Numbered from the stretch's first letter, positions 2,858 through 32,362 are shown. The stretch: DNA of 32,362 nucleotides from Candidatus Scalinduaceae bacterium (GCA_046759445.1 JBHICG010000037.1:1-32362); one strand, 5' to 3'. Program-made: numbers and translations. Notes: generated by a model not told the origin, from the sequence alone.

Positions 2858-2866
2858 AATGAATCT

Positions 2867-4804: not shown

Positions 4805-4813
4805 TAAATAACT

Positions 4814-7429: not shown

Positions 7430-7446
7430 CATTGGAGAATATACGA

Positions 7447-11768: not shown

Positions 11769-11960
11769 AACCGTGTTTACCGTCCAGGGTATTGGAATAC
11801 TCGCTGAGTTTGGGCAGGGATCCAAGAATTGGAAGCCCCAAGTAACGGGCTACCTCTCGTTCAGACTTAAATGAGGTATCCGTAATCTCAAGTACACCTA
11901 AAAATATTAGAACAACTAGTACTGAGCCCAAAAAAGACCACATAAGTGGGAAAAGACGGT
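11761..11960 (-). pseudogene. C-terminal remnant of a polysaccharide chain-length determinant (Wzz/Wzc-type)
   Basis: TM helix followed by LEITDTSFKSEREVARYLGLPILGSLP; sequence further upstream does not look homologous. Upstream boundary approximate. Confidence 0.65.
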
Positions 11961-13178: not shown

Positions 13179-13432
13179 AGGGTGAGGTTCTATCTTTTCT
13201 TGATGTACCACTAGAAAAGATTAATATTAATCTTCATGAATCTCTGTTAGAAAGCGGATTATTGGATTCTATGAATGTCCTAGAACTCATTACGCATCTG
13301 GAACAGGCATATAAAGTTGAATTCACGACTGAAGACATGACACGTAGTAATTTTGAAACTATCAATGCTATTGGTAAACTCCTGACGAGGAAAAATATTT
13401 CTATAGAACATGATAACACAGACAATTCTTAA
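13157..13432 (+). CDS. Acyl carrier protein
   Basis: Phosphopantetheine site GLLDSMNVLELI; acidic 91 aa; AAGGA SD. Confidence 0.9.
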   Translation: MASIEKLKGEVLSFLDVPLEKININLHESLLESGLLDSMNVLELITHLEQAYKVEFTTEDMTRSNFETINAIGKLLTRKNISIEHDNTDNS

Positions 13433-14993
13433 ATATTCCAGTATAAAGTTTCCAGAAAAACATGCGGTTGTATCATCCTCCAAATGCATAAAATACAAAG
13501 AGCTGGAAAGTTTATCAAATAAACTCGCAGCATTACTGATAGAATACGGCATAAAAAGAGGAGATAAAGTTAGTGTCTACCTGCCTAAATCCATAGAGGA
13601 AGTAATATCCATCTTTGCTATCGTTAAGGCAGGAGGGATATTCGTTTTGTTAAATCCTGTGTTAAAAAAGAACCAGGTAGAACATATTATAAATGACTGT
13701 GGAATCAAAATCCTAATAAGTAACAATACAAAACTTAAATATATAAATTATCAGAAACATGAATTCAAATCCCTCTCAAAACTTTTGTTATTTGAAGAGA
13801 AAACGGATTATTCTCCCCACACGTCATCAGAAAAAACAATAAATGTTAGCAATGCTATTGAAAACATTGAGGAGAATTTTATTCAACCAGCCTGTGTCCC
13901 TTCAGACCTTGCAACAATTATATATACGTCTGGTGCGACTGGTAAGCCAAAAGGAATAATGACAACTCATCAAAACCTATTTGAGGGGACTGAGATAATC
14001 TCAAAATATCTAGATATGAATGTTAATGACATTATACTCGGTATTTTACCCTTTAGTTTTGATTATGGTTTAGACCAATTACTTACCAGCTTAAGAGTTG
14101 GAGGAACGATAGTGCTGCACGATTTCCTCTTTCCAGAAGATACATTAAAAGTTATAGCGGAACAAAAAATAACTGGTGTTGCTGGAGTACCCGTAATCTG
14201 GAACATAATAGCTGAAGTTGAAAATATCTCAAGAGAATATAAATTCCCGCAATTGAGATATATAACTAATTCCGGGGGCAAACTTACCAGACAAAACGTA
14301 TTTAAACTCATGGAAATTTTCCCTGATGCCAAATTGTACTTGATGTACGGTTTGACAGAGTCCCATAGGTCAACATTTTTAGACCCTTCTATGGTCAAAT
14401 CAAAACCAGATTCTATTGGAAAAGCTATTCCAAATGTAGAAGTTTATATCCTAAATGAAGAAAACAAGCCTTGCAAACCCGGCGAAACAGGAGAACTCGT
14501 TCATAGAGGAGCATTAATATCCATGGGATATTGGAATGACCCTGTCAGGACAAATGAGGTATTCAGACCTAATCCACTTCTCCCTGAGGATACTCTACAA
14601 TCCGAAAAGGTGGTCTACTCAGGAGATCTGGCCAAATACGATGAAGAAGGATTTATTTACTATGTAGGAAGAAAGGACGATATGATTAAAAAAATGGGTT
14701 ATCGGGTGAGTCCAACTGAGATTGAGGAAGCCATCTTGAAAATGAAAAAGATAAGTTGCGTAATTGCAGTTTGTATTGAGCTGGAAAATCTTGAGCAAGA
14801 CATTTTGTGTTATGTTATTTTACAAAAGAAAGCCAAATGCTCTAAAAGTGAAATACTACAATTTTTACGAAACAATATTCCTTCATACATGATGCCCAGA
14901 GAAATCGTATTTAAAGAATCTATCCCTATTTCGCCTAATGGTAAAATAGATAAATCTTCCCTGAAAAAAGAAGCTCGCATTTATGTCAGTTAA
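13410..14993 (+). CDS. AMP-forming acyl-CoA/ACP ligase (exosortase-A-system-associated type)
   Basis: YTSGATGKPKG, LPFSFDYG, MYGLTE, PDSIGKAIP, GELVHRGAL, YSGD, PNGKID; adjacent to a PLP decarboxylase. Confidence 0.88.
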   Translation: MITQTILKYSSIKFPEKHAVVSSSKCIKYKELESLSNKLAALLIEYGIKRGDKVSVYLPKSIEEVISIFAIVKAGGIFVLLNPVLKKNQVEHIINDCGIKILISNNTKLKYINYQKHEFKSLSKLLLFEEKTDYSPHTSSEKTINVSNAIENIEENFIQPACVPSDLATIIYTSGATGKPKGIMTTHQNLFEGTEIISKYLDMNVNDIILGILPFSFDYGLDQLLTSLRVGGTIVLHDFLFPEDTLKVIAEQKITGVAGVPVIWNIIAEVENISREYKFPQLRYITNSGGKLTRQNVFKLMEIFPDAKLYLMYGLTESHRSTFLDPSMVKSKPDSIGKAIPNVEVYILNEENKPCKPGETGELVHRGALISMGYWNDPVRTNEVFRPNPLLPEDTLQSEKVVYSGDLAKYDEEGFIYYVGRKDDMIKKMGYRVSPTEIEEAILKMKKISCVIAVCIELENLEQDILCYVILQKKAKCSKSEILQFLRNNIPSYMMPREIVFKESIPISPNGKIDKSSLKKEARIYVS

Positions 14994-16266
14994 ACAAATA
15001 AACAAGCTCGGTCATTTGGAAATGTGTGGACACGACCTTTTAGCCATTGCTCATAAGGTTGAAAGCCCATTCTATCTTTATTTTGCCAAAGATATTGAAG
15101 AAAAATATAGACTGCTCAAATCGCTTTTACCAGAGAACATGGGAATTTTTTACGCCGTAAAGGCGAACCCTAACCCAGAAATCCTTGCCCTTTTAAAAGG
15201 TTTTAATTCAGGTTTTGACATATCTTCGGGAGGAGAATTTTCAAGATGTTTAAGTGTGGGGATTTCTCCACAGAATATAAGTTTTTCTGGACCTGGGAAA
15301 AATGAAAAAGAACTTTCCGAGGTTATTCGGAATAATGTTTTTGCAATAAGTGTAGAATCTCAGAGAGAAATTGAAAAGATTATGGATATTGTTAAATCTA
15401 CATCAACGATAGTAAATATCATGTTACGAATTAATCCAACCAAGAAACCCCAGAAATTCTCACTTAAAATGGGAGGGTTGCCATCACAATTTGGAGTTGA
15501 TGAAGAAATGGCGCCAGAAATAATCAAGACTATCGGAAAACACGATTTACTTAATTTCATAGGAATCCACGTTTTCAACGGAACACAGTGTCTGGATTCA
15601 AAGGCCATTATAAATAACATTTCAGAAACAATTAAAATGGCAGAAAGGATATCTCAAAAAGAAAGCATAGAGTTAAAATTCATAAATTTAGGAGGCGGTT
15701 TTGGTGTTCCTTACTATGAGGGAGATGAGGAATTAAACATTCAGGAAGTATGCAATGCCATAAAAGACATCTTATCATTAATACAAAAAACCTCACACAG
15801 TCTTAAAAATACCAGGTTTATTTTAGAATTGGGTAGATTTTTAGTGGCTCAATGTGGAATCTACATAGCAAAAATTACTGACATAAAGGTCTCAAAAGGG
15901 AAAAAATTCATCATACTCAATGGCGGAATGAATCATCATCTTGCTGCTTCTGGAAATTTTGGCCAAGTCTTGAGAAAAAATTATGTTATGTGTCCATTAG
16001 AAATGCGCAATATAAAAAAGCAGGAAAAGGTAAATGTAGTTGGCCCCTTATGCACACCCATTGACAGGCTTGCTACTGAAATCTTATTGCCGGAATTAAG
16101 GATTGGTGATTACATTGGTATTTTTAATTCAGGCGCTTATGGTTTTACGGCAAGCCCACTCCTCTTTCTATCACACAACTTACCTATCGAAGTTTTCCAG
16201 TTAGAGAATAAAATTAAAGTTGTTACGGCTTCAAAAAATATTCAATTTAAGACATATACAATCTAG
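14983..16266 (+). CDS. PLP-dependent decarboxylase, diaminopimelate/ornithine decarboxylase fold (exosortase-A-associated type)
   Basis: YAVKAN PLP lysine, GGGFG, ELGRFLV, GGMNHHLAASGNFGQV, GPLCTPID, GAYG. Confidence 0.9.
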   Translation: MSVKQINKLGHLEMCGHDLLAIAHKVESPFYLYFAKDIEEKYRLLKSLLPENMGIFYAVKANPNPEILALLKGFNSGFDISSGGEFSRCLSVGISPQNISFSGPGKNEKELSEVIRNNVFAISVESQREIEKIMDIVKSTSTIVNIMLRINPTKKPQKFSLKMGGLPSQFGVDEEMAPEIIKTIGKHDLLNFIGIHVFNGTQCLDSKAIINNISETIKMAERISQKESIELKFINLGGGFGVPYYEGDEELNIQEVCNAIKDILSLIQKTSHSLKNTRFILELGRFLVAQCGIYIAKITDIKVSKGKKFIILNGGMNHHLAASGNFGQVLRKNYVMCPLEMRNIKKQEKVNVVGPLCTPIDRLATEILLPELRIGDYIGIFNSGAYGFTASPLLFLSHNLPIEVFQLENKIKVVTASKNIQFKTYTI

Positions 16267-19495: not shown

Positions 19496-20152
19496 TCATA
19501 ATTCCATGCTTTCCCCTGGGCTTAATATCAGTACTTCAGCCAGACCCCCTACAAGATCTTTAAACTTACATGGATCGGCTTTAATTATTGGAAATGTACT
19601 ATAATGCATTGGGATGACCCTTTTGGGTTTAAGATATTCTACCGCCTTAACGGCTGATCTTATCCCCATTGTATAGCGATCACCTATTGGTAAAAAGGCG
19701 AGATCTATATTAAAGAATTCACCGATTATGTGCATATCACCGAAAAGACCTGTATCACCAGAATGGTAAATTGTTACACCTTCCGTCTCTATAACCACTC
19801 CTGCAGCATGACCATTTAGGCTGGAATGGTTCGCATTAACCATATTTATGGTTACATCCTCCATATTTATTGTGCCACCTATGTTCATTCCTTCCGATTG
19901 AATGCCAGAGTTTTCAGCGTCAACGGCTATCTCATGAATCCCAACTAAAACAGCTCCTGTATTCTTACAAATCTCATAAGCATCACCAATATGATCAGCA
20001 TGATTATGGGTAACAATAACGATATCTGCAACATCTATCTGATCTATAGATATCCCTGCAGTTGGATTTTCACTTAAGAATGGATCTACATAAATAGTCT
20101 TAGCCCCTTTGACGCATATGGCTGAATGTCCAAGAAAAGTTATTTTTATCAT
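19496..20152 (-). CDS. Metallo-beta-lactamase-fold metal-dependent hydrolase (UPF0173-like)
   Basis: FLGHS, THNHADHIGD, YHSGDTGLFGDM, LPIGDRYTMG, IPMHY. Confidence 0.92.
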   Translation of the reverse strand: MIKITFLGHSAICVKGAKTIYVDPFLSENPTAGISIDQIDVADIVIVTHNHADHIGDAYEICKNTGAVLVGIHEIAVDAENSGIQSEGMNIGGTINMEDVTINMVNANHSSLNGHAAGVVIETEGVTIYHSGDTGLFGDMHIIGEFFNIDLAFLPIGDRYTMGIRSAVKAVEYLKPKRVIPMHYSTFPIIKADPCKFKDLVGGLAEVLILSPGESMEL

Positions 20153-20452
20153 ATTCTAACTCCTCATAAGTAATTGTACTAAAATAGCAGGTTTACACTA
20201 CATATTCCCATACAACTGAACCAAAAGAAACATTATAAAATTAAAAGAGAATTAAAATGGTCTCTGTTGATACCCAAAAAGGTGCAGTAATAAATGGATT
20301 TTTTTTGCCCCGTTAGATAAATCCATCTTTCTCTGATTTCAGTTATAGATAATACCTGAATATGTACATAATACTGTCTATAACATAATATCTTACGAGG
20401 TTTATATCTGAAGATATGTACTAGTGTTTAGGAGAATTGGTTGTGGCTAAAG

Positions 20453-20656
20453 TTATTTGTAAACATCTATAGCAAAATCTGGACACATTAAACCGCAAAA
20501 TTTACATGCAGTACATTTGTTACCATTTACATATTGTGCAACATGATAACCTAAATGATTTACATCTTCTGACATCTTTATAAGCTCATAAGGACATGCC
20601 TTAACGCAAAGCTCACACCCTTTACATCTATATTCATTAATTACAATTTTCCCCAT
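20453..20656 (-). CDS. 2x[4Fe-4S] ferredoxin resembling a 2-oxoacid oxidoreductase delta subunit
   Basis: CKGCELCVKACP and CTACKFCGLMCPDFAI. Confidence 0.9.
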   Translation of the reverse strand: MGKIVINEYRCKGCELCVKACPYELIKMSEDVNHLGYHVAQYVNGNKCTACKFCGLMCPDFAIDVYK

Positions 20657-20962
20657 TGTTATTTTTTTATTTAAAAATATTTAATTATAAGTATCATTGA
20701 TTTTAAATAATCCTTTCTTCTTAATCAATAATAAAAAACATAATAATTTTTGAGGCAGTTGTTATTTAAATGGTTCAAAAGTTAAGTCGCTTTTAATTAA
20801 GGATTCTAGATGAAAAATATATCCATTAAAAGTTTTTAATTCATGTATTGCACTTGTTTATTGAATTGAGAACAACTATCGTATATCATTAAAAGTTAAA
20901 CTTTGAGTCCAGTATTCCGTTTTTTATATTATAATTTGACAATAACTCGAATTGTATTCACT

Positions 20963-20999
20963 TATTGCTGGTTCAGTCTACAAGACTGAACCAGCAATA
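20963..20999. repeat. Perfect 17-bp inverted repeat with 3-nt loop downstream of the integrase; possible terminator
   Basis: TATTGCTGGTTCAGTCT-ACA-AGACTGAACCAGCAATA; no long U-tract. Confidence 0.7.
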
Positions 21000-21105
21000 G
21001 ATTTATGATTCAATAAATAAGGGAATTCAAGATGATAGACATACACGCACATATAAGGATAAACGCTTCTCTATCATAATGATAATTAATCACTTACAAC
21101 AATAT

Positions 21106-22146
21106 TCAAATTTCATTTTCTTTAACTGTAGTCAAATTGTAGTCAAACTCTAACACCTCTACTCCATCTCTTAAGCTTTCTGGACAATGATGGGAGTAAC
21201 GCTGAGTCATCTTGATATCTTTGTGTCCTAACAATTTTGATATTTTATAGATATCAATTCCTCCTTGAGCCAAGCGAGTCGCAAAACAATGTCTCAGGTC
21301 ATGGAATCTGAAGTTAGTGATTTTTGCCTTCTCTAATGACTTGCGAAAAGAATCTCCTAAACTATTGGGATTAACTTTTCTACCATCTCTGTTTAGAAAC
21401 ACATAATCATTCTTTATATTCCCTACCTTTGACCTTTGTTCGAGCACATTTAAAGCGTACTTATTAAGTGGAACGGTTCTATGTTCACCATTTTTAGTAT
21501 CGGTGATAAGAATAGTTTTTCTGATAATATTGACTTTTGACCATTCTAGCGAAATTAATTCTCCCTGCCTTAAACCTGTGTTTAGGCTAAAGATTATTAT
21601 TTCACTAAGCCACTCAGGACTATTTTCAATGAGCCGTCTTTCTTCATCTCCATTAAGCCATCTATCTCTCTTATTTTTCTCCTTTTCCTTTGACACTTTT
21701 GAGACAGGATTGTATTTGAGCCATTCCCATTCCTTAATAGCAACATTAAAAGCTGCTGAAAGCATTGACAACTCACGGTTTATTGTGGCTGGTTTCACAC
21801 CATCATTTCTTCTCAACATCTTATAGCGTGAAACCATTTTTGGAGATATAGACGATAAATTCGATTTCCCAAAGAAAGGAATAAGATGTTTTAAAGATGT
21901 TGTATAGCTCTTTCTCATATTCTCAGATACTGTTGGAGAATGCTCCTTCATAAATTTCTCCATCATATCTTTAAGAGTCTTATTATTACCGATAGGTTTC
22001 TCAAAATAACTCCCTTCAACAATCTCAGTCCTGATCTTCGCCTCTATAGCTTGTGCAAGTTTCTTATCAGTAGTTCCCAAACTCCTTTCAGCCTTTTTTC
22101 CTTTATATCTAATACACGTCCACCAGACACGGCCTCGTTTATACAT
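21106..22146 (-). CDS. int: Phage-type tyrosine integrase
   Basis: N-terminal arm-binding-like YKRGRVWW...SLGT; catalytic TGLRQGE, TKNG, FHDLRH, LLGH, TQRY; GGAGG SD. Confidence 0.95.
   Translation of the reverse strand: MYKRGRVWWTCIRYKGKKAERSLGTTDKKLAQAIEAKIRTEIVEGSYFEKPIGNNKTLKDMMEKFMKEHSPTVSENMRKSYTTSLKHLIPFFGKSNLSSISPKMVSRYKMLRRNDGVKPATINRELSMLSAAFNVAIKEWEWLKYNPVSKVSKEKEKNKRDRWLNGDEERRLIENSPEWLSEIIIFSLNTGLRQGELISLEWSKVNIIRKTILITDTKNGEHRTVPLNKYALNVLEQRSKVGNIKNDYVFLNRDGRKVNPNSLGDSFRKSLEKAKITNFRFHDLRHCFATRLAQGGIDIYKISKLLGHKDIKMTQRYSHHCPESLRDGVEVLEFDYNLTTVKENEI
21125..21146 (+). repeat. 22-bp direct repeat copy 1 (integrase arm-type site pair or att core), inside the int 3' end
   Basis: ACTGTAGTCAAATTGTAGTCAA, containing TGTAGTCAA twice; identical to 32240..32261. 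Confidence 0.85.
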
Positions 22147-22200
22147 ATTTACCTCCTTTCCCGAAGCCTGATAGTGCCTGTATAACCGCTATCAGATGTA

Positions 22201-22437
22201 TTATATAGTACCATTGTGGAAATCTACAACAATTTTGTTAGCGTTATTCTCATGTTGAAGGTATGGACGTTTTGAACTAGCCATTACATTATTTATATCA
22301 TGAAGGTCAAAGAGCACTCTGCGCCCAAATTTGATAGATGGTATCTTCCCTTGACTAGCCCACTCATATAGTGTTTTCTCAGGTAAAGATGTATACTCTG
22401 AAATTTCTTTAATGCCTACATATCGTTTATCCAACAT
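22201..22437 (-). CDS. Excisionase-like HTH DNA-binding protein
   Basis: YVGIKEISEYTSLPEKTLYEWASQGKIPSIKFGRRVLFD; next to int; ATG 22437 has a GGGAG SD. Confidence 0.88.
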   Translation of the reverse strand: MLDKRYVGIKEISEYTSLPEKTLYEWASQGKIPSIKFGRRVLFDLHDINNVMASSKRPYLQHENNANKIVVDFHNGTI

Positions 22438-22503
22438 TGTCTCCCTTAAGCATTCCGTTAATAACAATTTTAGATATTCATTTTATTACATTTTTATTTA
22501 ATC

Positions 22504-22662
22504 CTATTTACTATCCTGCTTATTTCTATATTTTCTTAATATGATATTAACACCTTCACGTACTAACTCTGAATATGGGATATTCAATCTATAACTTAGT
22601 TCTTTAATCCCTTTATACTGCTTACCAGTCAGGAAAACGTTGCAACTTTGCTTCAAATCCAT
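22504..22662 (-). CDS. Ribbon-helix-helix DNA-binding protein
   Basis: CNVFLTGKQYKGIKELSYRLNIPYSELVREGVNIILRKY; GGAG SD before ATG 22662. Confidence 0.8.
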   Translation of the reverse strand: MDLKQSCNVFLTGKQYKGIKELSYRLNIPYSELVREGVNIILRKYRNKQDSK

Positions 22663-22872
22663 TTCAATTCTCCATAAAAAAAGACCATGCAAAATTAATC
22701 ACATGGCCTTAATATATATATTAATTTATTTAAAATCTAATTGTTGTTACCATTAGTTACTTTTCACTAAAAGGTAACTGGTTTTTGTTTAAACAGGCTA
22801 ATACTACAAATTACAGGTATGAAACAAAGCTTCAACCTAAAAAATTATTTTATTACTTTAGTTTAAAAGTAA

Positions 22873-23622
22873 CTAACATTTTGTAAATATTTCATAATAT
22901 TTTTTCTTAATAGTTTTAGGTGTGTAACTGAATTTGTATTGGGATAAACATACATTCTCTACTTCCTTAAAATATTTTGGATATCCAAATGTTTTTGGCT
23001 GGCATTCTTTTTTTACAGAAATAAAAATCTTTTTCATTTCTATATCAGATATTTTTTTCTTTCTATCTACACTCTTTAGTTGTCTTTTCAAACGCTTCAA
23101 TTTTTTAAAATCTGATTCGGTAATACATAATGTGCGGATTGAAACGTCATAAGGGTGTTTTTCTATATACGGTGAGACAGGAAAAAGATAATAACCAATC
23201 TCGGGTTCATAGCATTCTTTAAATGCAAGTTTTATATGTTTGCTACTTAAAACGTTATCACTTTTAGCCAAGAATTTCTGTATATCCGTCTTATGATAAA
23301 AAAAGATTGGTTTATCATTGCCTCTTATAGTACCGACATTAACTTCTCCCTTAATACCACTCATGAGAATTTCTTCTTCCTGTAACTTCTTAGATGCTTC
23401 AGTTAACATAACTATTTTGCTAAACCGAGGAACTTTATAAGCTGAATCTTTAAGTGAATCAATAACAAGTGTTTTATCAAATGTAAATAAATTATTAATT
23501 TCCTGGGGTGTTGCACTACTAATAAAATCAAAGATTACTGGAAAGGATTTTTTTTCTTGCTTAACGGTAGTGGATTTTTTTGAAAACTTCTTTAAGGTTT
23601 TACTTTGCTTTTTCTTAATCAT
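22873..23622 (-). CDS. Hypothetical basic protein with possible C-terminal HTH
   Basis: 249-aa ORF with GAGGT SD; C-terminal helix pair ending YTPKTIKKKY. Confidence 0.6.
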   Translation of the reverse strand: MIKKKQSKTLKKFSKKSTTVKQEKKSFPVIFDFISSATPQEINNLFTFDKTLVIDSLKDSAYKVPRFSKIVMLTEASKKLQEEEILMSGIKGEVNVGTIRGNDKPIFFYHKTDIQKFLAKSDNVLSSKHIKLAFKECYEPEIGYYLFPVSPYIEKHPYDVSIRTLCITESDFKKLKRLKRQLKSVDRKKKISDIEMKKIFISVKKECQPKTFGYPKYFKEVENVCLSQYKFSYTPKTIKKKYYEIFTKC

Positions 23623-23658
23623 GCTGCCACCTCTCTTTCGTAGCTCTCTATAAGTGAG

Positions 23659-23715
23659 AATTGGGACAACTGGTAGAGATTGCCAGCTTTTGGATAGCTT
23701 GCCCTAGTCCCAATT
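23659..23715 (-). ncRNA. Putative structured cis-regulatory RNA, copy 1
   Basis: On -: outer stem AATTGGGAC/GTCCCAATT, linker TAGGGCAAGCTATCCAAA, inner stem AGCTGG/CCAGTT, loop CAATCTCTA. Same architecture as 31911..31967. Confidence 0.6.
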
Positions 23716-23782
23716 TGTGATTAGACAATGAAAAAGGAGAAGTGTAGAGATGTTAATCCCTATTTTAAACTTAAATTTGTAT

Positions 23783-24523
23783 TCATCTGTTTAAACCTTC
23801 TTCAACTACTGTAAATGTAATACTCTCACTTGTAGCATCATGAACTAAAATTTTATAGTCTTTAAACCGTATTACTTTTGAATCAGAAGGATATATTAAA
23901 TCCTGAAAGAATGCGGTTCTGGCTAAATTATCTGGAGAGTATTCTCTATATGTTATATGTAATGATTTTTCATCTTTGCCTGTGTAAATCAACTCATAAT
24001 TCTTATAACCTTGTTGAGAATCAACCTTTGTAATATCCTTCTTAATAAATTTAGCATCTGGAGGATTTACTTTAAATTTAAACCAGTTTTTTTGATAGAT
24101 TCCAATATTACGAAAAATCGAACTTCCGTCTACCTCACCATTTTCAGATATTAATAATAAGGAGCTAGCAGGATCGTCAGAAACAATTTTTATAAGGTAA
24201 AATATTTTCTTATTTACCATAGTTTCCCCTACAATTTCATATTGTTCCTGAGCATAAAAAGTGATTCTGCTTAGACTATATTTGATTGTAACATCAACAT
24301 TTGGAGAGACAGTTTTTGCGCTAAATTTTGATAAATAGTAATTCTTAACTTTGATCATTGGTTCACCAACATACATTGTTTTTCTTACGGTTAGCTCGTA
24401 ATTCTTATTAAAAACCTGATCAGTTCCAAGATAATTTGATCTATAGGGTGTGAAACTTGTACAACCCATTAACCAAAAAATGGAAATAAAACACAAAACA
24501 AAAACCTTATTGCTTCTTCTCAT
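23783..24523 (-). CDS. Lipoprotein of unknown function
   Basis: Lipobox LMGC after a hydrophobic stretch; C-terminal ELIYTG...YREYSPDNLARTAFFQDLIY. Confidence 0.75.
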   Translation of the reverse strand: MRRSNKVFVLCFISIFWLMGCTSFTPYRSNYLGTDQVFNKNYELTVRKTMYVGEPMIKVKNYYLSKFSAKTVSPNVDVTIKYSLSRITFYAQEQYEIVGETMVNKKIFYLIKIVSDDPASSLLLISENGEVDGSSIFRNIGIYQKNWFKFKVNPPDAKFIKKDITKVDSQQGYKNYELIYTGKDEKSLHITYREYSPDNLARTAFFQDLIYPSDSKVIRFKDYKILVHDATSESITFTVVEEGLNR

Positions 24524-24573
24524 GACCTTCCTTTATGATAAAAAGATAGGTAGTCAGTTTTTTGTTTTTAATA

Positions 24574-24720
24574 TCAGGCCAGACACACCATGCATGAATA
24601 CTTGAGCTGGACTGCCCGTCTAACTTGTGGAACTAAAATTCTATCGCAGCTTTCACATAAACCATCACTAGTTAACCTTAAAAACTAACCAGATTTTCTA
24701 CAATATTTACACGTAGCCAT
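24574..24720 (-). pseudogene. Small Zn-finger ORF interrupted by an in-frame TAG
   Basis: AAGGAG SD; MATCKYCRKSG*FLRLTSDGLCESCDRILV...; TAG at 24685-24687 lies between the two CxxC pairs. Confidence 0.55.
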
Positions 24721-24898
24721 AATAATATCTCCTTAATTCATTTAATATGTCCGTATAAATGTTCGTCATTGTGATTCCAACCCCCTTGATTTGATAAAGT
24801 TTACAAGACTCCCCCCTAGACACATGGAGCTTTCTGGCTTTCAATCAATCATAATCATGTTAGCCGTTGCATTCTGTGCTGACCGCTTCAACTTTGTG

Positions 24899-25555
24899 TT
24901 ATGGTTTAATAAGTAACTTTAAACAATTTCCTTCATCATCCCAGTTTAAAATAATTTTCTCAAGAGGCATTGACATGTTCTTTCCATTTTCGTCAAGAAA
25001 TGTTGTCCAAAAGTTATTGACTGAAAGCAAAGTTGACTTAAATCTGCTCCTTACATAAAGGCATCGATTCATGGTACTTGTGGAAACTAAAGCCTGTTGG
25101 TCAGGTGCAATTGTAATTCCTTTACCAATCCATTTTGCTAATTCTCTGACTTTACCTAGTCTAAGCTCAATTAATTTTTGAAAAACTTCTTCCGATGCTT
25201 TTATCGTTTGTGACCCTCGTCTGACAAAAGCTTTACCAGCAAAATGAGGAGTATCTCCATCATATTCAATCTCTACACATACACAAGGCTTTCCATCTTT
25301 TTCATAAACTTTAGACTTACAGGTATTAGTAATAGGTGGGTAAATTTTATCGCAAACCTCTTGTACTGTTATCTGTGTTGTTTCAGGATTAACGACTCCT
25401 TCGGTAGTACCATCATCCCTTTCACCTATATAAAATTTTGCTGTATGACCCTGTTTCACAGAATTAGCAAATGCAACAATAGTCCTTGTCATATCTTTCT
25501 TACTTGGATTAACTTTTCGCTCTACTAAATTATCTTCCCATGGTAAATCAGTCAT
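24899..25555 (-). CDS. Schlafen/AlbA_2-domain protein with short beta-rich C-terminal domain
   Basis: EDNLVERK, IVAFAN, YIGERDDG and FVRRGSQT motifs; AAGGAG SD. Confidence 0.85.
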   Translation of the reverse strand: MTDLPWEDNLVERKVNPSKKDMTRTIVAFANSVKQGHTAKFYIGERDDGTTEGVVNPETTQITVQEVCDKIYPPITNTCKSKVYEKDGKPCVCVEIEYDGDTPHFAGKAFVRRGSQTIKASEEVFQKLIELRLGKVRELAKWIGKGITIAPDQQALVSTSTMNRCLYVRSRFKSTLLSVNNFWTTFLDENGKNMSMPLEKIILNWDDEGNCLKLLIKP

Positions 25556-25567
25556 AATATCTCCTTT

Positions 25568-26092
25568 TTACTCATTTTCCTTCTCTTTTAAACCTCTATC
25601 ACCCAAAAAAAGCTCTTCAAATTTATCAATTAGTTTTTTGCTAGTATAAGTTGTTATAGTTTTAATGTTTTTCAGATATTTACTATACGCATTCCCCTCC
25701 TCGCTCATATCTATATACTGAGCAATATCATCTTTAGGAATTACATGAAATAAAAAAACCTTGCTTTTACCTGTAGCTCTGTATCGAAAGGTAACTGCAT
25801 ATATTCCTTCACTCACATCTACTGCTCTCCAACCTATAGGAAAAAAATCTCCGTTGGAATCTTTTGAGCGAACCTCTATAAATTTTTCTGTAGTTAAAAC
25901 CCAACCTTTTCCAGAAGCTAAAATTCCAGAATCTAAAACAACCTTTTTTGCCAACTCTATTGCCTTCTCTTTAGGAGAAACAACATTTTTCTCATTTTCT
26001 TTGGCAATAACACACGTATCAATAAAAGCAATTAAAAATCCAATCATTATTCCAATGTAAATATAATATTTATTTTTCATCTGAGACAGCAT
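25568..26092 (-). CDS. Hypothetical membrane-anchored or secreted protein
   Basis: N-terminal hydrophobic helix; start re-set to ATG 26092 (GGAGAGG SD). Confidence 0.65.
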   Translation of the reverse strand: MLSQMKNKYYIYIGIMIGFLIAFIDTCVIAKENEKNVVSPKEKAIELAKKVVLDSGILASGKGWVLTTEKFIEVRSKDSNGDFFPIGWRAVDVSEGIYAVTFRYRATGKSKVFLFHVIPKDDIAQYIDMSEEGNAYSKYLKNIKTITTYTSKKLIDKFEELFLGDRGLKEKENE

Positions 26093-26274
26093 ACTTACCT
26101 CTCCCTTCCCTTTATCAATTTCCTTACGATTTGTGCCTTGTCCAGCTCTGCGAATATACCCTGTATCTTGAATCATAGCTTTTTTTCATCGGGTCGCCCT
26201 GTACCGCATCCGTAACGACCTCCTCTGTATAGGCAGATATTAAACTAATCTTTTTGTTTACAAGATATATCAAT

Positions 26275-26904
26275 TCAATTATTCCTAATCAGATTTGCCA
26301 GTTTACCGTTCTCACTGGGCAATATGTCTGCATACAGGCTTGTCATTGTGATATTGCTATGCCCTAATTGTTTCTGAACAAACCTTAGATTCTTTGTCGT
26401 ATGATAAAGGTGCGTACCGTAAGTATGCCTAGCACTATGTATCGAGTATCTAGGATTTAACCCTGAGTCTTCTATTGCTTTTTTAAAGCTAATCTGCAAT
26501 GCAGTAGCGGTCGAATGTTTCCCGCCTCTACCAGCAAGGAAAGGAGCTTCAGGTTCTACGGATTCTTTTAAGGTCTTCTTTTTATAAGCGATATACTTTT
26601 TCAGTTCCTTAACCAATCTTTTGTCTAAATACACATCTCTATCCTTGTCCCTTTTACCATTTCTAACAAACAGATAAGGGTCATCTACTTTATTGAGATG
26701 CAAGTCTTTTATCTTTAACTTTGCAATCTCACTTACTCTAAGACCTGAATACAAGACAAGATTAACTAGCATGTTCCTTACAACCCATGTTATACGCCCT
26801 TTCATTAAATCAAGTTCTGCTTTTTCTTTACAAAACCTTATCAACTTATCTCTTTCTTTATCATCCATAAATTTGTCTCTTGTAATTTTATAATCAGATT
26901 TCAT
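26275..26904 (-). CDS. Small catalytic-domain-only tyrosine recombinase
   Basis: SGLRVSE, NGK, HSARHTY, QLGHS, TSLYA; 209 aa; AAGGAG SD. Confidence 0.92.
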   Translation of the reverse strand: MKSDYKITRDKFMDDKERDKLIRFCKEKAELDLMKGRITWVVRNMLVNLVLYSGLRVSEIAKLKIKDLHLNKVDDPYLFVRNGKRDKDRDVYLDKRLVKELKKYIAYKKKTLKESVEPEAPFLAGRGGKHSTATALQISFKKAIEDSGLNPRYSIHSARHTYGTHLYHTTKNLRFVQKQLGHSNITMTSLYADILPSENGKLANLIRNN

Positions 26905-26939
26905 TTTGTAATCTCCTTTCTAGATTATTCCTTTTCTTA

Positions 26940-27923
26940 CTACATAGCTCTGACTTCCTTCCAAAGTTGATTTATCTTTTTCTCAATAGATTTCTTTGTC
27001 TCAGGTTTAATATCAACTGTTTTGTCAAACAATTTATTCACAAATATAATATTAGGTACTGCTCTTTCAAAATCATCTTTATTAATATACAATTTGATCG
27101 CTTTAATAAAGTTTTCAAATGCCCTTTCAAACTCTTTACGCCTATAATAAATATTCCCTTTATTCTTATAAGGGAGAGGGTTATCTCGTTTTAAGTTAAT
27201 CGAGTTATTATAGTCTTCAATTGCTTCCTCATTACTATTGATCCTTCCATAAGCAGACCCTCTATAGTTATAAACAGAAGCAGCACTAGTATCATCTGGT
27301 GCTTCTTCTAATGCATTTGTAAAAGAGTCAATTGCATCTACATATTTCCCATTAATAAATTCTTCAGCTCCTTTATAATACCAGTCATCAAAGGAGTATT
27401 GCTTCTTAATCTTTGTTTGAGGAAGTAAATCTTTAAATTTAGTCTAGTTCAAACGAGTTTCTTCTGGAATAATGGGAACACCTTTCTCTTTAATAACTTC
27501 TTTATCTTTAATAACATCTTTTTCCTTTGCAGCCTCATTAATTACTTGTTGTTCTTCCTTTAAATTTTTAAGCACATCAGCTATCCCTTTTTTTCCTTCT
27601 TCTTCTAACTCATTTGTTAAATTCTCAATTACTTCTTTGGCTAATGGCTCAATTACACTCTTTGCAGTTTCTTTAACTTTTTCTTGAACAGTTTCTATAA
27701 TAGTTTTTTTAATATTTTCATAACCAATAAATGAAAGCAGAGCTATGGCTAAACCTATAGCTGTAATTATCATTCTCTTTTGTGAGCTATCTGACTCTTT
27801 TTTTGAAGTAACCAATTTTTCCAATGCCTTTAGCTGAATATTTGTTTGTTTTTGATTCCCATATACTTTCTCTTCCAAAACTTTTATATCAATATCCTTA
27901 TCTTTCTCTGGTTTTCGTGCCAT
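26940..27923 (-). pseudogene. TM + coiled-coil + TPR protein split by one in-frame TAG
   Basis: After the TAG at 27444-27446 the frame stays open for 167 codons with clear TPRs (DWYYKGAEEFINGKYVDAIDSFTNAL; VYNYRGSAY...EAIEDYNNSI; PYKNKGNIYY) to TAG 26940. Confidence 0.8.
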
Positions 27924-28212
27924 AGCTATACCCCTTTTTCTAAAGAAAAGACATGCAATATTTTTAAGGAATTATAAGTTATTTTTATTAATAAATAAAG
28001 AAAAAAAGGGATATTTTTATTAAAATTTATATTATATTAAAAATACCATGTTTAGTAAGTAAGGCGTATAAAGGAATCTGATTTTGTGGAACAGGCTGTC
28101 CAGAGAAACATAAACAATAAGATGCACTGAATGTTTCAGGTGAGGTGTTTGGCTTGTGGCAGCAGGAATTACAGGCCGTATCTGGAAATTGGAGGAAATT
28201 ATATAAAACGTA

Positions 28213-28641
28213 TTATACTATTGGAATTTCTACTTTATCGGCATCTTTTGGTATAGTCCTAAATGCATCACTATAACCAGAAAATCTGTTTATAGTAGGA
28301 GAAGGTATTTTAGCAAACGCTTTTAACATCAGCGTAGTAATTGAAACTAGCCTTTTGTCCTTAGAAGTGTAATCTGCTTGCACAGCCATTAAATCCATAT
28401 CGTACACATTAAACAATGCGTGTATATCTTTTAGTTGAAAACCAATTGGTTTTTTATCTTCAATTGAGAGATATAATGTTAAATATTCGTCAATTCTTTT
28501 TCGTATTGTGGCAACGTGCATGGTCTTAAAATGAATACAGTCCCCCTCTTGGTTATACCATATTTGAAGGTCGTGTTGTTTAGAACCAAAATCACTCCCT
28601 TTTGCATCTTGCATTATTTGATTTATAAATTCTTTTTCCAT
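28213..28641 (-). CDS. DUF2283-like putative antitoxin
   Basis: IWYNQEGDCIHF...RIDEYLTLYLSIEDKKPIGFQLKDI pattern; overlaps the upstream gene by 19 nt; GGAG SD before ATG 28641. Confidence 0.55.
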   Translation of the reverse strand: MEKEFINQIMQDAKGSDFGSKQHDLQIWYNQEGDCIHFKTMHVATIRKRIDEYLTLYLSIEDKKPIGFQLKDIHALFNVYDMDLMAVQADYTSKDKRLVSITTLMLKAFAKIPSPTINRFSGYSDAFRTIPKDADKVEIPIV

Positions 28642-29033
28642 ATTCGTTCTCCAAAACGGTCTTTCCAACCTATAGGACTTAGTGGATCTTCTATGTCAGC
28701 TTCCTCTGCTCCAAATTCAAAAATACTATTTCTTTCGTTTAAAAATACTAAATAAACAAGATCATCTGGAAATAATGCTGTATCACTTATATTTACTCCT
28801 ATATACCAATGCTTAGGTTTACCAACAACACATAACTTCTTACTGCTATTACTATGAGGCCTGTTAAGACCAGAAAAAATGCGATTGGGATTGTTTAATA
28901 CTTTGTATGCTGTTGAAAGATTAAGAAAATCATTTGGTCTATAAAGCATAAAATAATTATAATCTTTTGGTTCTATTCGTATTTCTTTTTCGCTATTGCT
29001 TACAGGCCATTTGATCGTAAAACGAATAAGCAT
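28623..29033 (-). CDS. Putative BECR-fold (RelE/Barnase-like) nuclease toxin
   Basis: AYKVLNNPNRIFSGLNR helix-P-strand pattern followed by beta strands; coupled to a DUF2283-like gene. Confidence 0.45.
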   Translation of the reverse strand: MLIRFTIKWPVSNSEKEIRIEPKDYNYFMLYRPNDFLNLSTAYKVLNNPNRIFSGLNRPHSNSSKKLCVVGKPKHWYIGVNISDTALFPDDLVYLVFLNERNSIFEFGAEEADIEDPLSPIGWKDRFGERIWKKNL

Positions 29034-29574
29034 TTACTAATACTTATTATAATCCTATTTGTTTTTTAAAGAAATGCTATATTTTGCTGGCGGATAAGGT
29101 CATCTATAATAGTACCCATTATAAAACACTTTTTTTTAAATAGTCAATCAAATTTTATCTATATATTTATCGTTAAGAAATATTTAGAATATAGCGTATA
29201 ATATGAAATTTATTGAAATTAGGACACTACCCAAATTTTATTCATTATTACTTTCCTAGCAACCAACTTATTTTACAAAATCTTATAAAACACATAACCA
29301 GTTGTTAACTTTTGCAATATAAACGTAGATATTTAACATTATATTGCTTATATAAGTAAATCTATTGTTATATTATGATTTGAGAACAACTATATATGGT
29401 AAGAAAGTTCATGTAACAGCATCAACGTAAACACAAACCTAATTTAATATAACTTCTCCACATCACAAGATGTGGTATAGTCTTTATGCTGGTAGAATGG
29501 TATGAAATTTGATAATAAATCTACATATTATTGAAGTCAAGAAAAAAGAGATAAGATAAAATAGGGATAATAAT

Positions 29575-30126
29575 ATGCCACCAAAAGCCGTGAAGACAAT
29601 CCGAGACTTGATTTATTGGCAATATTCTAAAATAATATCTGAATCAGCAGGTGCAGGCAAAAAGAAATACGCTTTTGTTATGGATAGATTTAAGAAACTA
29701 CGGACTGGTGAAATAAACTGGTCTGGATCAATTAGGGAATACATAAAAGAACGTGAAAGCCCTAATGAATGTATTTACTGTGGTTCTATGGATAACCTTT
29801 CCTATGACCACTTGATACCAAAAAGTAAAGGTGGATTTGATATACCTGATAACGTAATAATGGCATGTAAAAATTGTAATTCATCAAAAGGTGATAAAGG
29901 TGTTTATGAGTGGTTTAAATTAGATAGACGTTATGATGTACCAAGAATAGCAGAGGGCAAGTATTTGAAACTACTATATCAACTTCATGAAGAAAAAAAC
30001 ACTTTAGATTTAGGTCGTAAAGATATTGAAGAACTTTGCAAAATGTGTGATTTGGGAAGCCTTTGTTCAGAAACAGATTTAACCGTTTATTGTCTTGAAA
30101 GTATATTGCATAAAATTAGTAATTAA
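29575..30126 (+). CDS. HNH endonuclease (Zn-binding McrA-like core)
   Basis: CIYCG...DHLIPKSKGG...NVIMACKNCNSSKG plus a C-terminal CxxC-x4-C-x8-C cluster. Confidence 0.92.
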   Translation: MPPKAVKTIRDLIYWQYSKIISESAGAGKKKYAFVMDRFKKLRTGEINWSGSIREYIKERESPNECIYCGSMDNLSYDHLIPKSKGGFDIPDNVIMACKNCNSSKGDKGVYEWFKLDRRYDVPRIAEGKYLKLLYQLHEEKNTLDLGRKDIEELCKMCDLGSLCSETDLTVYCLESILHKISN

Positions 30127-30280
30127 TTTTGCCTTACTTTTTTAGCTTATGCGTGCGCTATTAAAATACCTATCATTTTTCAATTCCTATACCCCACTCC
30201 CAAAGAATCATATTCAGTCATAATAGTAATATCTCACCCATATATTGCAGACTAAAAATCGGGGTTTTTGTGTCATCATT

Positions 30281-30781
30281 TTAATAACTTCCTTTAAGTG
30301 CTCTTCTTGCTTCCTTTGGATCAAGCCCCATACTTTTAAAAAAACTATCAAATTTACCACTTTCCTTTTGGCATTCATAAGTTAAATCATAACAATGTCT
30401 GCATCCGAAATAGTCTCCGCCCAAATATAAAACACCTACTCTACGATTACACATCCTTCCATTTACCACAAGAGGACAAAGAAACCACCACCTATGCCCA
30501 CCATAATTGCAAGGAGTAAATACAAGTCTTACCTTATAATCTAACTCTGTCTTCTGACCTGAAAATCTATCTGTCTGTGTATATTGGAATCTGACGTGTT
30601 CATCACCTTTAATGGTTGATACTTGCAAACCGATACTTCCTCGTTTCTCTCCCCCTCTACTCCAAATCACACTGCCAATTTGAATGCCACCATTAAAGAA
30701 ATTGTGTTGATTAAGCCAGAACGTATTTATTGACTTGCATTCTTCAACTGTAATTCTATCTGAATATGACCATCTGCCCAT
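30281..30781 (-). CDS. Mobile-element Zn-finger hypothetical protein
   Basis: TPCNYGGHRWWFLCP...CNRRVGVLY...FGCRHCYDLTYECQ; GGAGGAG SD. Confidence 0.75.
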   Translation of the reverse strand: MGRWSYSDRITVEECKSINTFWLNQHNFFNGGIQIGSVIWSRGGEKRGSIGLQVSTIKGDEHVRFQYTQTDRFSGQKTELDYKVRLVFTPCNYGGHRWWFLCPLVVNGRMCNRRVGVLYLGGDYFGCRHCYDLTYECQKESGKFDSFFKSMGLDPKEARRALKGSY

Positions 30782-30909
30782 GTAATTTCTCCTCCTAATT
30801 TTTACCTAAATCAATAATAGACCTTTTTCTCAAATGCTAAATACCTTTTTAAATGTATTGAAAAACCTTAAGATTTCTTAATATGTTTACGGATTGTAAA
30901 AACCTCTTT

Positions 30910-31860
30910 TCATATAAACTTAACACCCTTTAACCTTTCAAAAAAAGCGTTGTTTGCCTCTGACATATCTTCAGGAAACCTTTGGCAATTGTTTATATAA
31001 GGGATTCTCTTCATATAAAAAATTTCATTCGCAACACCACCATAGACACTTGGAAAATCTCTCAATTGACCAATCAATAAATCCTTGTCGTCTTCATCAT
31101 ACGCTGATAGTCTTGATTTATTTTTCCACATCAAATGTTTTAAGAGTTTATCTCTATTAATTTCTTTAAATGAAATTAAGTCTGGTAAATTAATATCGTT
31201 GATTTTCTCAAAACAATCTAATTCTAAATCTAGTTTTCTGATATACGTTCTATTAAGTCTAAATTCCAGTCTTAAAACATTATTATTATCAATTTTCTTA
31301 GAATACAAAATTATTGACTTACTGTTTTTCCTCTTATGTCCGATATAAAAAGAACCAAATTCATTATCAACAAAACAACTGTTTCCCCTATGAAACTTTA
31401 AAAACAAATGCCTCCAGAAAAACTCCTGCAATCCGTACTCATATGGAGAAATATCTATAGTCAATTCAACATGAGATAATGTAGTTAAAAAACCAAACGA
31501 GTTACAAATAGCATCAAACCAATCAACAGTCTTTATATCAGGCTTATAAATGATTATTCCCATACATGGATACATAAGACGGCGAGATATACAATTGTAG
31601 AGAATTGAAACATTTATACCCGTTTCACTAGAACAATATCTTTTTATTCGGTCATAAATTCCACGTTTTGCCCATCTATCATATTTACATTTATAATCAT
31701 TATCTTTTAACACAGAAAACAATGTTTCTTCTGGTTTATCAACAATACTATTACAGCTAAAGTACATACGGTCTATATGAGGATAAATGACTGAATTAGA
31801 TAAAAAATATAAGATATCTATATAATTATTAGCCCCGTAGCAAATACTTGTGTTATACAT
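30910..31860 (-). CDS. Putative Rep_trans-like (rolling-circle) replication initiator / relaxase
   Basis: LSHVELTID, SFYIG...SKSIILYSK and LRLEFRL resemble the RxDxAxD / TxYxG...YxK / RxExR motifs; GGAGG SD. Confidence 0.6.
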   Translation of the reverse strand: MYNTSICYGANNYIDILYFLSNSVIYPHIDRMYFSCNSIVDKPEETLFSVLKDNDYKCKYDRWAKRGIYDRIKRYCSSETGINVSILYNCISRRLMYPCMGIIIYKPDIKTVDWFDAICNSFGFLTTLSHVELTIDISPYEYGLQEFFWRHLFLKFHRGNSCFVDNEFGSFYIGHKRKNSKSIILYSKKIDNNNVLRLEFRLNRTYIRKLDLELDCFEKINDINLPDLISFKEINRDKLLKHLMWKNKSRLSAYDEDDKDLLIGQLRDFPSVYGGVANEIFYMKRIPYINNCQRFPEDMSEANNAFFERLKGVKFI

Positions 31861-31910
31861 TATTTTTGCCCTCCATTATTTATGCCCTATTGTTTTTAAT
31901 TTAAATAAGG

Positions 31911-31967
31911 GGGAAAGGAGCGGGCGAGGACAAAGACACCCGCTTTTCGGTAGCTAACCTATTTCCC
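31911..31967 (-). ncRNA. Putative structured cis-regulatory RNA, copy 2 (rep leader)
   Basis: On -: outer stem GGGAAA/TTTCCC, linker TAGGTTAGCTACCGAAA, inner stem AGCGGGTG/CGCCCGCT, loop TCTTTGTCCT. Confidence 0.6.
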
Positions 31968-31978
31968 TTTGAACACAT

Positions 31979-32152
31979 TTATCTTGTTGCTTTTGCTTCA
32001 ATCTGTTCAGATTCTTCTTTTGGTCTTTTGCCCATTCGGTAAGGATGTAATGGGCAGTCAGTAATTTGGCATTTGCGAATTTTGGCAAGTTGGTTTGCAC
32101 AGCAATCTTTACATTTTGCCCGAATTGCTTTTATAGGCGTTAATCTCTTCAT
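31979..32152 (-). CDS. 57-aa Cys-rich phage-type protein (absent from the ORF track)
   Basis: GAGGAGG SD; MKRLTPIKAIRAKCKDCCANQLAKIRKCQITDCPLHPYRMGKRP... Confidence 0.8.
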   Translation of the reverse strand: MKRLTPIKAIRAKCKDCCANQLAKIRKCQITDCPLHPYRMGKRPKEESEQIEAKATR

Positions 32153-32239
32153 TCAAATACCTCCTCTATGAAAAAAACACATAGCTATCTAAGTTTTTTT
32201 AAGTTAAAATGAAAAAAGCATGATATTATGACATTTCGT

Positions 32240-32261
32240 ACTGTAGTCAAATTGTAGTCAA
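32240..32261 (+). repeat. 22-bp direct repeat copy 2
   Basis: ACTGTAGTCAAATTGTAGTCAA, identical to 21125..21146. Confidence 0.85.
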
Positions 32262-32362
32262 TTACAGCGTAATCAATCGGAATCCAAAGGAATCTACAGA
32301 AAAAAAGAAAATAGGCTTATCCGGTTGACTGCCGTTAGTTCAACATCTGGTGATTCTCGGTT

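Follow-up and report, generated by a model that had tools for sequence, protein, structure and literature searches.

The 32,362-nucleotide (nt) stretch of DNA analysed here, referred to as the window, belongs to a Candidatus Scalinduaceae bacterium (GCA_046759445.1, JBHICG010000037.1:1-32362) and raises the question of what kind of RNA leader precedes a gene for a protein of 249 amino acids (aa) on its minus strand, and what such a leader might do. An initial annotation had drawn attention to a 9-base-pair outer stem enclosing an inner hairpin, followed by the tract UAGAGAG and by the Shine-Dalgarno (SD) tract of the gene, all of which can indeed be read on the minus strand, and had proposed a translational switch used twice in the same element. 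The flagged fold is real and is a divergent copy of the catalogued RNA motif int-alpA (Rfam RF02996), not a member of an uncatalogued family, which disposes of the possible novelty also raised at that time. The leader is a structured RNA on the coding strand, and the motif does occur twice in the element (copies 1 and 2), with the fold and the joiners kept and the stems different.

The assignment follows from the Rfam test that the initial annotation had suggested for int-alpA. Under E-value thresholds, RF02996 matched copy 1 with 32.2 bits (E 5e-5) and copy 2 with 25.5 bits (E 0.0023), in both cases over the full length of the model (positions 1-71 of 71). Both scores are lower than the gathering score of 35.8 bits, and a scan of the whole window at Rfam gathering thresholds gave 0 matches. 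The architecture of RF02996, in which a stem P1 surrounds two hairpins with the joiners CUAG, CGAAAAGC and CUG, is present in both copies, and the genomic context agrees with it, since an HTH_17 gene and a tyrosine integrase gene follow copy 1 in the same orientation. The two leaders are int-alpA by architecture and context; by the curated score both are just short of it. Elsewhere in this genome, a different contig carries a third copy, which passes the gathering score with 36 bits. Matches over the cut-off were found in 13 of the 41 genomes of relatives, in 33 of 132 genomes class-wide and in 10 of 151 genomes of a phylum sample (up to 12 in one genome), and E. coli CFT073 had no RF02996 match. 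In three other phylum genomes, all of one family (G202, G248 and G266), 12, 5 and 4 int-alpA matches were counted at E <=0.001, several of them on one short contig, and these look like arrays of leader-gene cassettes.

The int-alpA motif reportedly originated in the 2017 survey of Weinberg et al. and is said to have been described from Proteobacteria and a phage, its name being presumably based on the integrase and alpA-type genes found nearby in prophage-like elements. A full-text literature search for "int-alpA" found no account of the function of the motif; int-alpA is listed among predicted small RNAs of E. coli strains, and the other use of the term is as the name of a gene order. The main text of the 2017 survey (PMC5737381) contains no mention of "alpA".

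In relatives the motif extends beyond RF02996, with a U/C-rich linker, a purine-rich tail, a further hairpin (P4) and the start codon following in this order. About 60 relatives were gathered from the same bacterial class, and 53 of 60 instances were aligned with MAFFT (alignment A1), leaving out copy 2, L009 (which carries an insertion), L021 and L018 (low scores), L052 (a duplicate of L051) and the atypical L054 and L056. From these 53 instances, most of which score over the Rfam cut-off, a covariance model with the P1-P4 structure was built (R1; 100 positions, 21 pairs), and a second, model-fitted alignment of 67 distinct rows (A2) was prepared. Instances were parsed by alignment and model, as parsing based on minimum free energy (MFE) misfolded many of them. 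What emerges is a three-way junction (P1/P2/P3) whose joiners UAG, CGAAAAGC and CUG are near-invariant while all stems vary. The pyrimidine-rich P3 loop pairs with the purine-rich tail, 6-12 nt past P1, forming a pseudoknot, and directly after the tail stands P4, a short AU-rich hairpin that holds the SD in its loop and whose 3' strand constitutes the SD-to-start spacer, with the start codon only a few bases beyond. This SD-holding hairpin was absent from the initial description. R1 gave 70 matches over the window and 62 loci, scoring 68.3 bits (E 3.7e-12) on copy 1 and 29.0 bits (E 0.0012) on copy 2, where P4 is barely recognisable; with filters off over 20000-32362, no copy rose over noise besides these two. 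Besides the window, five loci (representing four distinct places, as L015 and L021 overlap) hold more than one copy, in tandem; the number is two or three in each case, and every copy heads a gene of its own. R1 also matched 25 viral contigs, 18 of them distinct, out of 59 with the conserved-joiner pattern.

All the predicted helices, including the pseudoknot, are supported by covariation. The structure under test had 26 pairs, five of them pseudoknot pairs, and was derived from the same sequences, the shuffles used for comparison disregarding relatedness: in A1, 86.7% of the cells were paired, against 71.3 +/- 0.7% in shuffles (0 of 500 as high) and 37.7-54.2% in slid controls, with a covariation score of 0.486 versus 0.228; in A2 the corresponding values were 87.9%, 69.4 +/- 0.7% (again 0 of 500), 35.7-55.7%, and 0.519 versus 0.218. 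In A2, four pseudoknot pairs were paired in 83.1% of cells and one in 78.7%, with changes on both sides (UA 27 and CG 25 at one pair; GC 17, CG 16 and UA 10 at another). As a covariance model cannot encode a pseudoknot, model fitting gives the pseudoknot columns no advantage. The P2 pairs covary in relatives as well (95.9% of cells paired), as do those of P4 (90.6-98.4%, with compensatory changes such as UA 32 and CG 22). The high frequency of G-U pairs (UG 12 at one pseudoknot pair, UG 8 in P4) fits the sense strand.

Spacing is constrained as well. Of 68 instances, 64 have a linker of 6-12 nt from P1 to the tail and 57 a gap of 0-3 nt between tail and P4; in 18 of 21, the start codon, chosen from lists of open reading frames (ORFs), lies 19-26 nt beyond the point where the Rfam match ends. 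Such tight spacing fits a compact fold within one molecule, and the presence of an SD hairpin and a start codon at fixed distance argues for a gene leader rather than a free-standing small RNA, although "Gene; sRNA" (small RNA) is the type that Rfam assigns to RF02996.

In copy 1 itself, P1 is formed by 9 Watson-Crick pairs (23715-23707 with 23667-23659) and surrounds TAGGGCAAGCTATCCAAA and the P3 hairpin AGCTGG[CAATCTCTA]CCAGTT (23688-23668; loop 23682-23674). Written as RNA, the leader runs AAUUGGGAC, UAGGGCAAGCUAUCCAAA, AGCUGG[CAAUCUCUA]CCAGUU and GUCCCAAUU, followed by CUCACUUA, UAGAGAG, CUAC GAAAGAGAG GUGGC, AGC and AUG. The SD, AAGAGAGG (23637-23630), sits in the loop and 3' strand of P4, and the SD region AAGAGAGGT (23637-23629) lies 7 nt ahead of the ATG at 23622-23620. 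Two purine tracts, UAGAGAG and AAGAGAGGU, are each able to form six pairs with the loop UCUCUA; the loop:tail duplex was computed with ViennaRNA at -6.3 kcal/mol, a value reached by 21 of 1000 loop shuffles. The coordinates of both leaders and of the neighbouring features are collected in Table 1.

Table 1. Positions of the two int-alpA leaders, their parts and the associated genes and repeats in the window.
Feature	Position	Strand	Basis or remark
Copy 1, whole leader	23715-23623	-	direct reading; RF02996 match
Copy 1, P1 5' strand AAUUGGGAC (DNA AATTGGGAC)	23707..23715	-	direct reading; RF02996 and R1 alignment
Copy 1, joiner UAG and short hairpin P2 (GGG...UCC, one G-U pair)	23692..23706	-	RF02996/R1 alignment
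Copy 1, joiner AAA and P3 AGCUGG[CAAUCUCUA]CCAGUU (loop 23674-23682)	23668..23691	-	reading, RF02996
Copy 1, P1 3' strand GUCCCAAUU (DNA GTCCCAATT)	23659..23667	-	direct reading, RF02996 alignment
Copy 1, tail UAGAGAG, pseudoknot partner of loop UCUCUA, SD look-alike	23644..23650	-	6 Watson-Crick pairs
Copy 1, P4 GCUAC[GAAAGAGAG]GUGGC	23626..23644	-	R1 alignment
Gene of 249 aa headed by copy 1	22873..23622	-	ORF list
Rest of copy 1 operon	21106..22692	-	Pfam
RHH_3 protein, 62 aa	22504-22692	-	Pfam
HTH_17 (AlpA/excisionase-type) protein, 88 aa	22201-22467	-	Pfam
Tyrosine integrase, 346 aa	21106-22146	-	Pfam
Copy 2, leader including SD/start region	31969-31858	-	RF02996 match; fold part 31969-31899
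Copy 2, junction	31911..31967	-	reading, RF02996, R1
Copy 2, P1 GGGAAA with UUUCCC	31962-31967 with 31911-31916	-	
Copy 2, P2 GGU with ACC	31957-31959 with 31949-31951	-	
Copy 2, P3 with larger loop UCUUUGUCCU (31927-31936)	31920-31943	-	
Copy 2, target GGAGGGCAAAAAUAAUG, SD and start of 316-aa gene	31858..31874	-	duplexfold
Gene of 316 aa headed by copy 2	30910..31860	-	ORF list
22-nt perfect direct repeat, copy A	21125..21146	.	repeat search family D3; within integrase's last codons
22-nt perfect direct repeat, copy B	32240..32261	.	repeat search family D3; upstream of 57-aa gene

The initial annotation had envisaged an anti-SD pseudoknot. A pseudoknot between the loop and a downstream tract does exist and covaries, but its conserved partner is the upstream tail and not the SD. 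The specificity of both pairings was assessed by an alignment-free test in which only Watson-Crick runs were scored and the own downstream region was compared with non-kin regions, that is, with those of instances whose loops have no 5-mer in common; the tail and SD zones were fixed and not anchored on start codons, because start calls by regular expression fell on AUGs within P4. The two best own sites summed to 10.70 on average, against 7.23 +/- 1.40 for 2166 cross pairs, and in 36 of 53 instances the cross pairs reached the own score in <=5% of cases. For the tail zone, the 53 class instances gave 5.81 for the own region and 3.31 +/- 0.88 for non-kin regions, with the own value reached in <=5% of cross pairs in 32 of 53. 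For the SD zone the contrast was smaller, 4.87 versus 3.71 (standard deviation 0.99). The 18 distinct viral instances, a set independent of the class set, gave the same results for tail (5.78 versus 3.01 +/- 0.77) and SD (4.89 versus 3.32 +/- 0.83), and include cases where neither partner is SD-like, such as UAAUGA/UAAUGAA (L113) and GUGACUA/UGACU (L123). Pairing of the loop with the tail is thus firmly supported by the sequence comparison. Matching between loop and SD is real on average, but weaker and partly generic. The initial proposal holds in that the same loop bases can also pair with the SD region: overlapping bases serve tail and SD in 48 of 53 instances, which makes the two pairings mutually exclusive, and the specificity of the SD contact is moderate.

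Copy 2 is a variant of the same plan. It keeps the fold and the joiners UAGG..AGCU..CCGAAAAGC of copy 1 on different stems, and its enlarged P3 loop, together with the first base of the P3 3' strand (UUUGUCCUC), pairs through 9 contiguous pairs with GAGGGCAAA (31865-31873), the SD of the 316-aa gene. The duplex was computed at -14.0 kcal/mol (duplexfold), a value reached by 27 of 1000 loop shuffles, and the own SD is the best partner of this loop among the element's 15 SD regions. A mini-ORF of 7 codons and a stop (31853-31876, minus strand) is also present in copy 2; its AUG (31876-31874) occupies the model-expected start position, and the frame spans the SD of the 316-aa gene and stops just past the AUG of that gene. 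Near-duplicate sequences, AUAGGGCAUAAAUAAUG and GGAGGGCAAAAAUAAUG, stand ahead of the two AUGs. This arrangement could reflect translational coupling or chance. The idea that the tail serves a small leader ORF was considered and rejected, since inspection by eye of matches printed with their downstream sequence revealed no start codon suitably spaced after the tail, copy 2 excepted.

The favoured and reasonably probable reading is that the leader is a cis-acting control of translation initiation, which is suggested by one loop being able to pair with either a look-alike site or the ribosome-binding site. It builds on features that have been demonstrated: a fold with a pseudoknot and a hairpin presenting the SD, a second site complementary to the loop, and a place ahead of start codons. 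In the pseudoknot state, the anti-SD-like loop would be occupied by the tail, and the pseudoknot helix, stacked on P4, would dampen ribosome access; pairing of the same loop bases with the SD instead, as a loop-loop contact, would block initiation. Alternatively, plain damping by the stacked pseudoknot and P4 could suffice. In copy 2, the enlarged loop would engage the SD directly. The balance between states might be set by the order of folding during transcription, by the ribosome, by a protein or by a second RNA copy, and the leader would in this way limit or time protein synthesis from element genes that are accessory or possibly harmful.

A number of observations weigh against this reading. 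Since loops are anti-SD-like and targets SD-like, part of the match is generic: in the SD zone, cross pairs reached the own score in <=5% of cases in only 10 of 53 instances (in <=20% in 27 of 53), and the median share of non-kin zones scoring like the own one was 0.18. In copy 1 the loop:SD duplex (-6.6 kcal/mol, ViennaRNA) was reached by 134 of 1000 loop shuffles, and other genes of the element have SD regions with which the loop pairs at least equally well (-7.7 and -7.0 kcal/mol); loop:SD pairing is thus not specific in copy 1. In two other genomes of the class (L037 and L038), the P3 loop mismatches its own tail. Neither copy folds unusually well as a single sequence (MFE z-score -1.38 for copy 1, with 17 of 200 shuffles folding as well, and -0.79 for copy 2, with 41 of 200), so the case for the structure is carried by homology and covariation. 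No positioned TAnnnT stands out in the 13 nt upstream of P1 across 59 instances, and sigma-70 scans found nothing adjoining copy 1 or copy 2. The analysis found no switching, effector protein, ligand or antisense RNA. Finally, an SD placed in a hairpin loop could stay accessible, so the effect may be repression or activation.

Some features of these sequences deserve separate mention. L037 combines a loop of the UCUCCA class with a tail of the CAAGG class, and L037 and L038 may be recombinant leaders. The 13 nt ahead of P1 are A/T-rich across the 59 instances. Four loci (L004, L007, L041 and L048) have in common AGATAG-N13/14-TAAAAT (TAGAAT in L007), with 6 nt (L004, L041), 3 nt (L048) or 4 nt (L007) between the end of the hexamer and P1; as a candidate promoter or operator, this block would place the transcript start close to P1. 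Another block, CUUCUCCUUUUUUAUUG-like and about 10-25 nt upstream of P1, is common to four instances, the window (23716-23782), L019, L012 and L020; its reverse complement resembles a strong SD (AAAGGAGAAG), followed in the window by an ATG that opens a frame of only 14 codons on the plus strand.

The main competitor of cis control is a trans-acting antisense "immunity" RNA like CI of P4 or C4 of P1/P7, in which processing, or termination at the U-rich linker, would free the P1-P3 domain from the leader, and its loop would then pair with tail and SD sites of other transcripts from the same or matching elements, shutting off the replication/excision operon. According to PMC4825925, the CI RNA arises by processing of a leader, and its pairing partners are two complementary sites, seqA and seqC; according to PMC8198154, C4 of P1 is cotranscribed with the genes under its repression. 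The locations are comparable: P4 carries the CI RNA (RF01695, 74.9 bits in the positive control) and its target family RF03163 (44.1 bits) at an equivalent place, immediately downstream of the AlpA-like vis gene in the leader of an operon whose last gene encodes the alpha primase, and the leaders studied here head operons with primase-helicases and HTH_17 genes. The single loop with two matching sites and the many loop/target classes recall heteroimmunity specificities, a U-rich stretch does follow P1, and the sRNA typing in Rfam points the same way. However, the tight linker and spacing fit an intramolecular fold, whereas a purely trans target needs none; several copies lie 3-10 nt past a stop codon, within operons; and neither RF01695 nor RF03163 matched at E up to 10 in 23500-23850 and 31800-32100, around the two copies. 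In addition, the two copies of the element differ in loop and target sequences, cross-pairing at the tail amounting to 3 pairs against 6 for copy 1 with its own, which is at odds with one shared trans regulator that would recognise the loop by its sequence, a form of control that the initial annotation had contemplated. Regarding other targets in the element, the copy 1 loop does about equally well with several SD regions and the copy 2 loop best with its own. On balance, a trans-acting immunity RNA seems rather unlikely.

A bolder proposal, which must be regarded as doubtful, would make the loop/tail/SD triad a programmable specificity code, leaders released from one element pairing in trans with matching leaders. 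If true, such a code would set immunity or incompatibility among competing satellite-like elements and represent an RNA-only analogue of P4 CI and P1 C4 on a different and far more widespread scaffold, with the upstream tail protecting the element's own nascent transcript. As an alternative, two nearly equal pairings could work as a timer that allows only freshly made messenger RNA to be translated.

Both copies lie within an integrated mobile element of about 11 kb in a Scalindua-like genome (anammox, Planctomycetota). The neighbouring HslU protein has its nearest relatives, at 81-89% identity, in Candidatus Scalindua, Scalinduaceae and Brocadiaceae, which marks the host as an anammox-type planctomycete. 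On the minus strand, the order is a 57-aa Cys-rich gene, copy 2, the 316-aa gene, a second tyrosine recombinase, a Schlafen/AlbA_2 protein, a 246-aa gene, copy 1, the 249-aa gene, RHH_3, HTH_17, the tyrosine integrase and then chromosomal hslVU. Copy 2 starts about 10 nt past the stop codon of the 57-aa gene, and a second copy in L020 starts 3 nt past the preceding stop codon, which places some copies inside operons. The 249-aa protein has no Pfam, PHROG or convincing Atlas match (look-alikes all < 0.8; predicted local distance difference test of the Atlas model 0.44), and its C-terminal 63 residues resemble the post-leader gene of L020 (35% identity, E 3e-6); the 316-aa protein has no Pfam or PHROG family. 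Such diversity is general, as only 8 similar pairs occur among 21 post-leader proteins and only 1 of 19, a TPR protein, has a Pfam family over the cut-off. In 10 wider loci (94 ORFs), a recurring order begins with the leader, a gene of no known family and a small RHH/HTH protein, and continues with a primase-helicase (Prim-Pol + DnaB_C, D5_N + PriCT_2, DnaG zinc ribbon + AAA_25, or Rep_O + DnaB), HTH_17, and a Dam-type methylase or integrase, with toxin-antitoxin, defence or host genes upstream of the leader. This recurring order indicates that the leader heads the replication/excision operon of integrative, satellite-like elements.

This context also bears on a third possibility, that the leader is an operator for a protein or small ligand bound at the conserved junction (UAG, CGAAAAGC, CUG). 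The binder would be a host factor (a ribosomal protein or the 30S subunit, as with S15 on rpsO), an element protein or a metabolite, and its binding would stabilise the pseudoknot and trap or block the ribosome. Near-invariant joiners amid wholly variable stems could be expected of a binding site, the scaffold is kept across the class, the phylum sample and unrelated viral contigs, as would fit a universal partner, and such operators, like SD-sequestering riboswitches, are usually built with a pseudoknot beside the SD. Against it, no conserved protein accompanies the motif, the diversity of post-leader genes being as described above; the conserved neighbour proteins have DNA-binding folds (RHH_3, HTH_17); the downstream genes have no metabolic theme that would indicate a ligand; and the conserved adenines are equally explicable as tertiary contacts inside the fold. 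An operator of this kind is accordingly judged quite unlikely. As for riboswitches proper, no riboswitch family of Rfam matched in the window or around either copy, and this candidate was set aside, the downstream genes being diverse and of no known family rather than sharing a single metabolic theme.

It could also be asked whether the motif acts as RNA at all, or instead as a single-stranded DNA (ssDNA) structure or DNA site, such as an attC-like recombination site, an origin or a transfer origin. The motif sits in integrative elements with recombinases and primases, and recurs ahead of successive genes in a cassette-like manner; in PMC5737381, the method of Weinberg et al. is stated not to distinguish ssDNA from RNA structures and to have found attC sites. 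Nevertheless, the orientation of the motif is always that of the downstream gene, its 3' part is an SD hairpin with a start codon at fixed spacing, and the covarying partner of its loop belongs to the ribosome-binding region. Moreover, the candidate ends of the element are a different sequence: a 22-nt repeat composed of two 11-mers, each ending TGTAGTCAA, whose copies are 11,115 nt apart with both leaders between them. These repeats are candidate element ends or recombinase-binding sites, copy B overlapping a promoter-like site upstream of the 57-aa gene. A DNA-level role is highly improbable.

With regard to the remaining gene content, the element also holds the Schlafen/AlbA_2 protein (24899-25555), the second tyrosine recombinase, of 209 aa (26275-26904), and an HNH endonuclease (29575-30126), the last on the opposite strand. 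The chromosomal part of the window (851-8265 and 10230-16266) includes a MoxR AAA+/DUF58/VWA (BatA-like) gene set and a cluster with two AMP-binding enzymes, a carrier protein and a PLP-dependent decarboxylase.

In summary, int-alpA is longer than its catalogue entry, to which a covarying pseudoknot and a hairpin presenting the ribosome-binding site can be added, and in anammox-type Planctomycetota and viral contigs it stands ahead of unrelated genes where replication/excision operons begin. An entry typed as sRNA gains in this way a testable hypothesis, that of translational control by a loop with two alternative partners. The window itself adds little to this: a planctomycete host, the context of an operon and, in copy 2, a variant that pairs directly with the SD.

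How do these leaders compare with known systems? With int-alpA as catalogued they have in common the full-length model match, three stems, the joiners CUAG, CGAAAAGC and CUG, and the proximity of an integrase and an AlpA-type HTH_17 gene. They differ in scores below the gathering value, in their anammox-type planctomycete host and in the enlarged loop of copy 2 that pairs directly with the SD; the Rfam model ends within the tail, and the entry as displayed has no pseudoknot, P4/SD hairpin or fixed start-codon distance, all of which are seen here. With C4/CI RNAs (RF01695) and their targets (RF03163) they share the position of a structured RNA in the leader of a satellite or prophage replication or antirepressor operon, a loop complementary to two sites on one transcript, one of them at the ribosome-binding region, and a specificity that varies among related elements. 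The loop with two sites is a likeness in possible working and not a sign of membership, and judging from sequence and predicted fold the window leaders are not members of the C4 family. The int-alpA joiners are missing from C4, in which a long closing stem is combined with two adjacent hairpins, and P4 in turn gave no int-alpA match; the sites of C4 flank the RNA on both sides, whereas in the window leaders both lie downstream; and C4 and CI act in trans after processing, CI via transcription termination, modes of action that are only putative for the window leaders.

Pseudoknot operators and SD-sequestering switches form the third group, to which belong the rpsO/S15 leader, the preQ1-II and SAM-II riboswitches and the refolding hok messenger RNA. 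The likeness lies in a pseudoknot beside or including the SD and in alternative pairings that decide ribosome access. The int-alpA scaffold, in contrast, is a three-way junction, accompanied by a look-alike site of its own and by a hairpin that presents the SD, and it heads unrelated mobile-element genes instead of one conserved gene.

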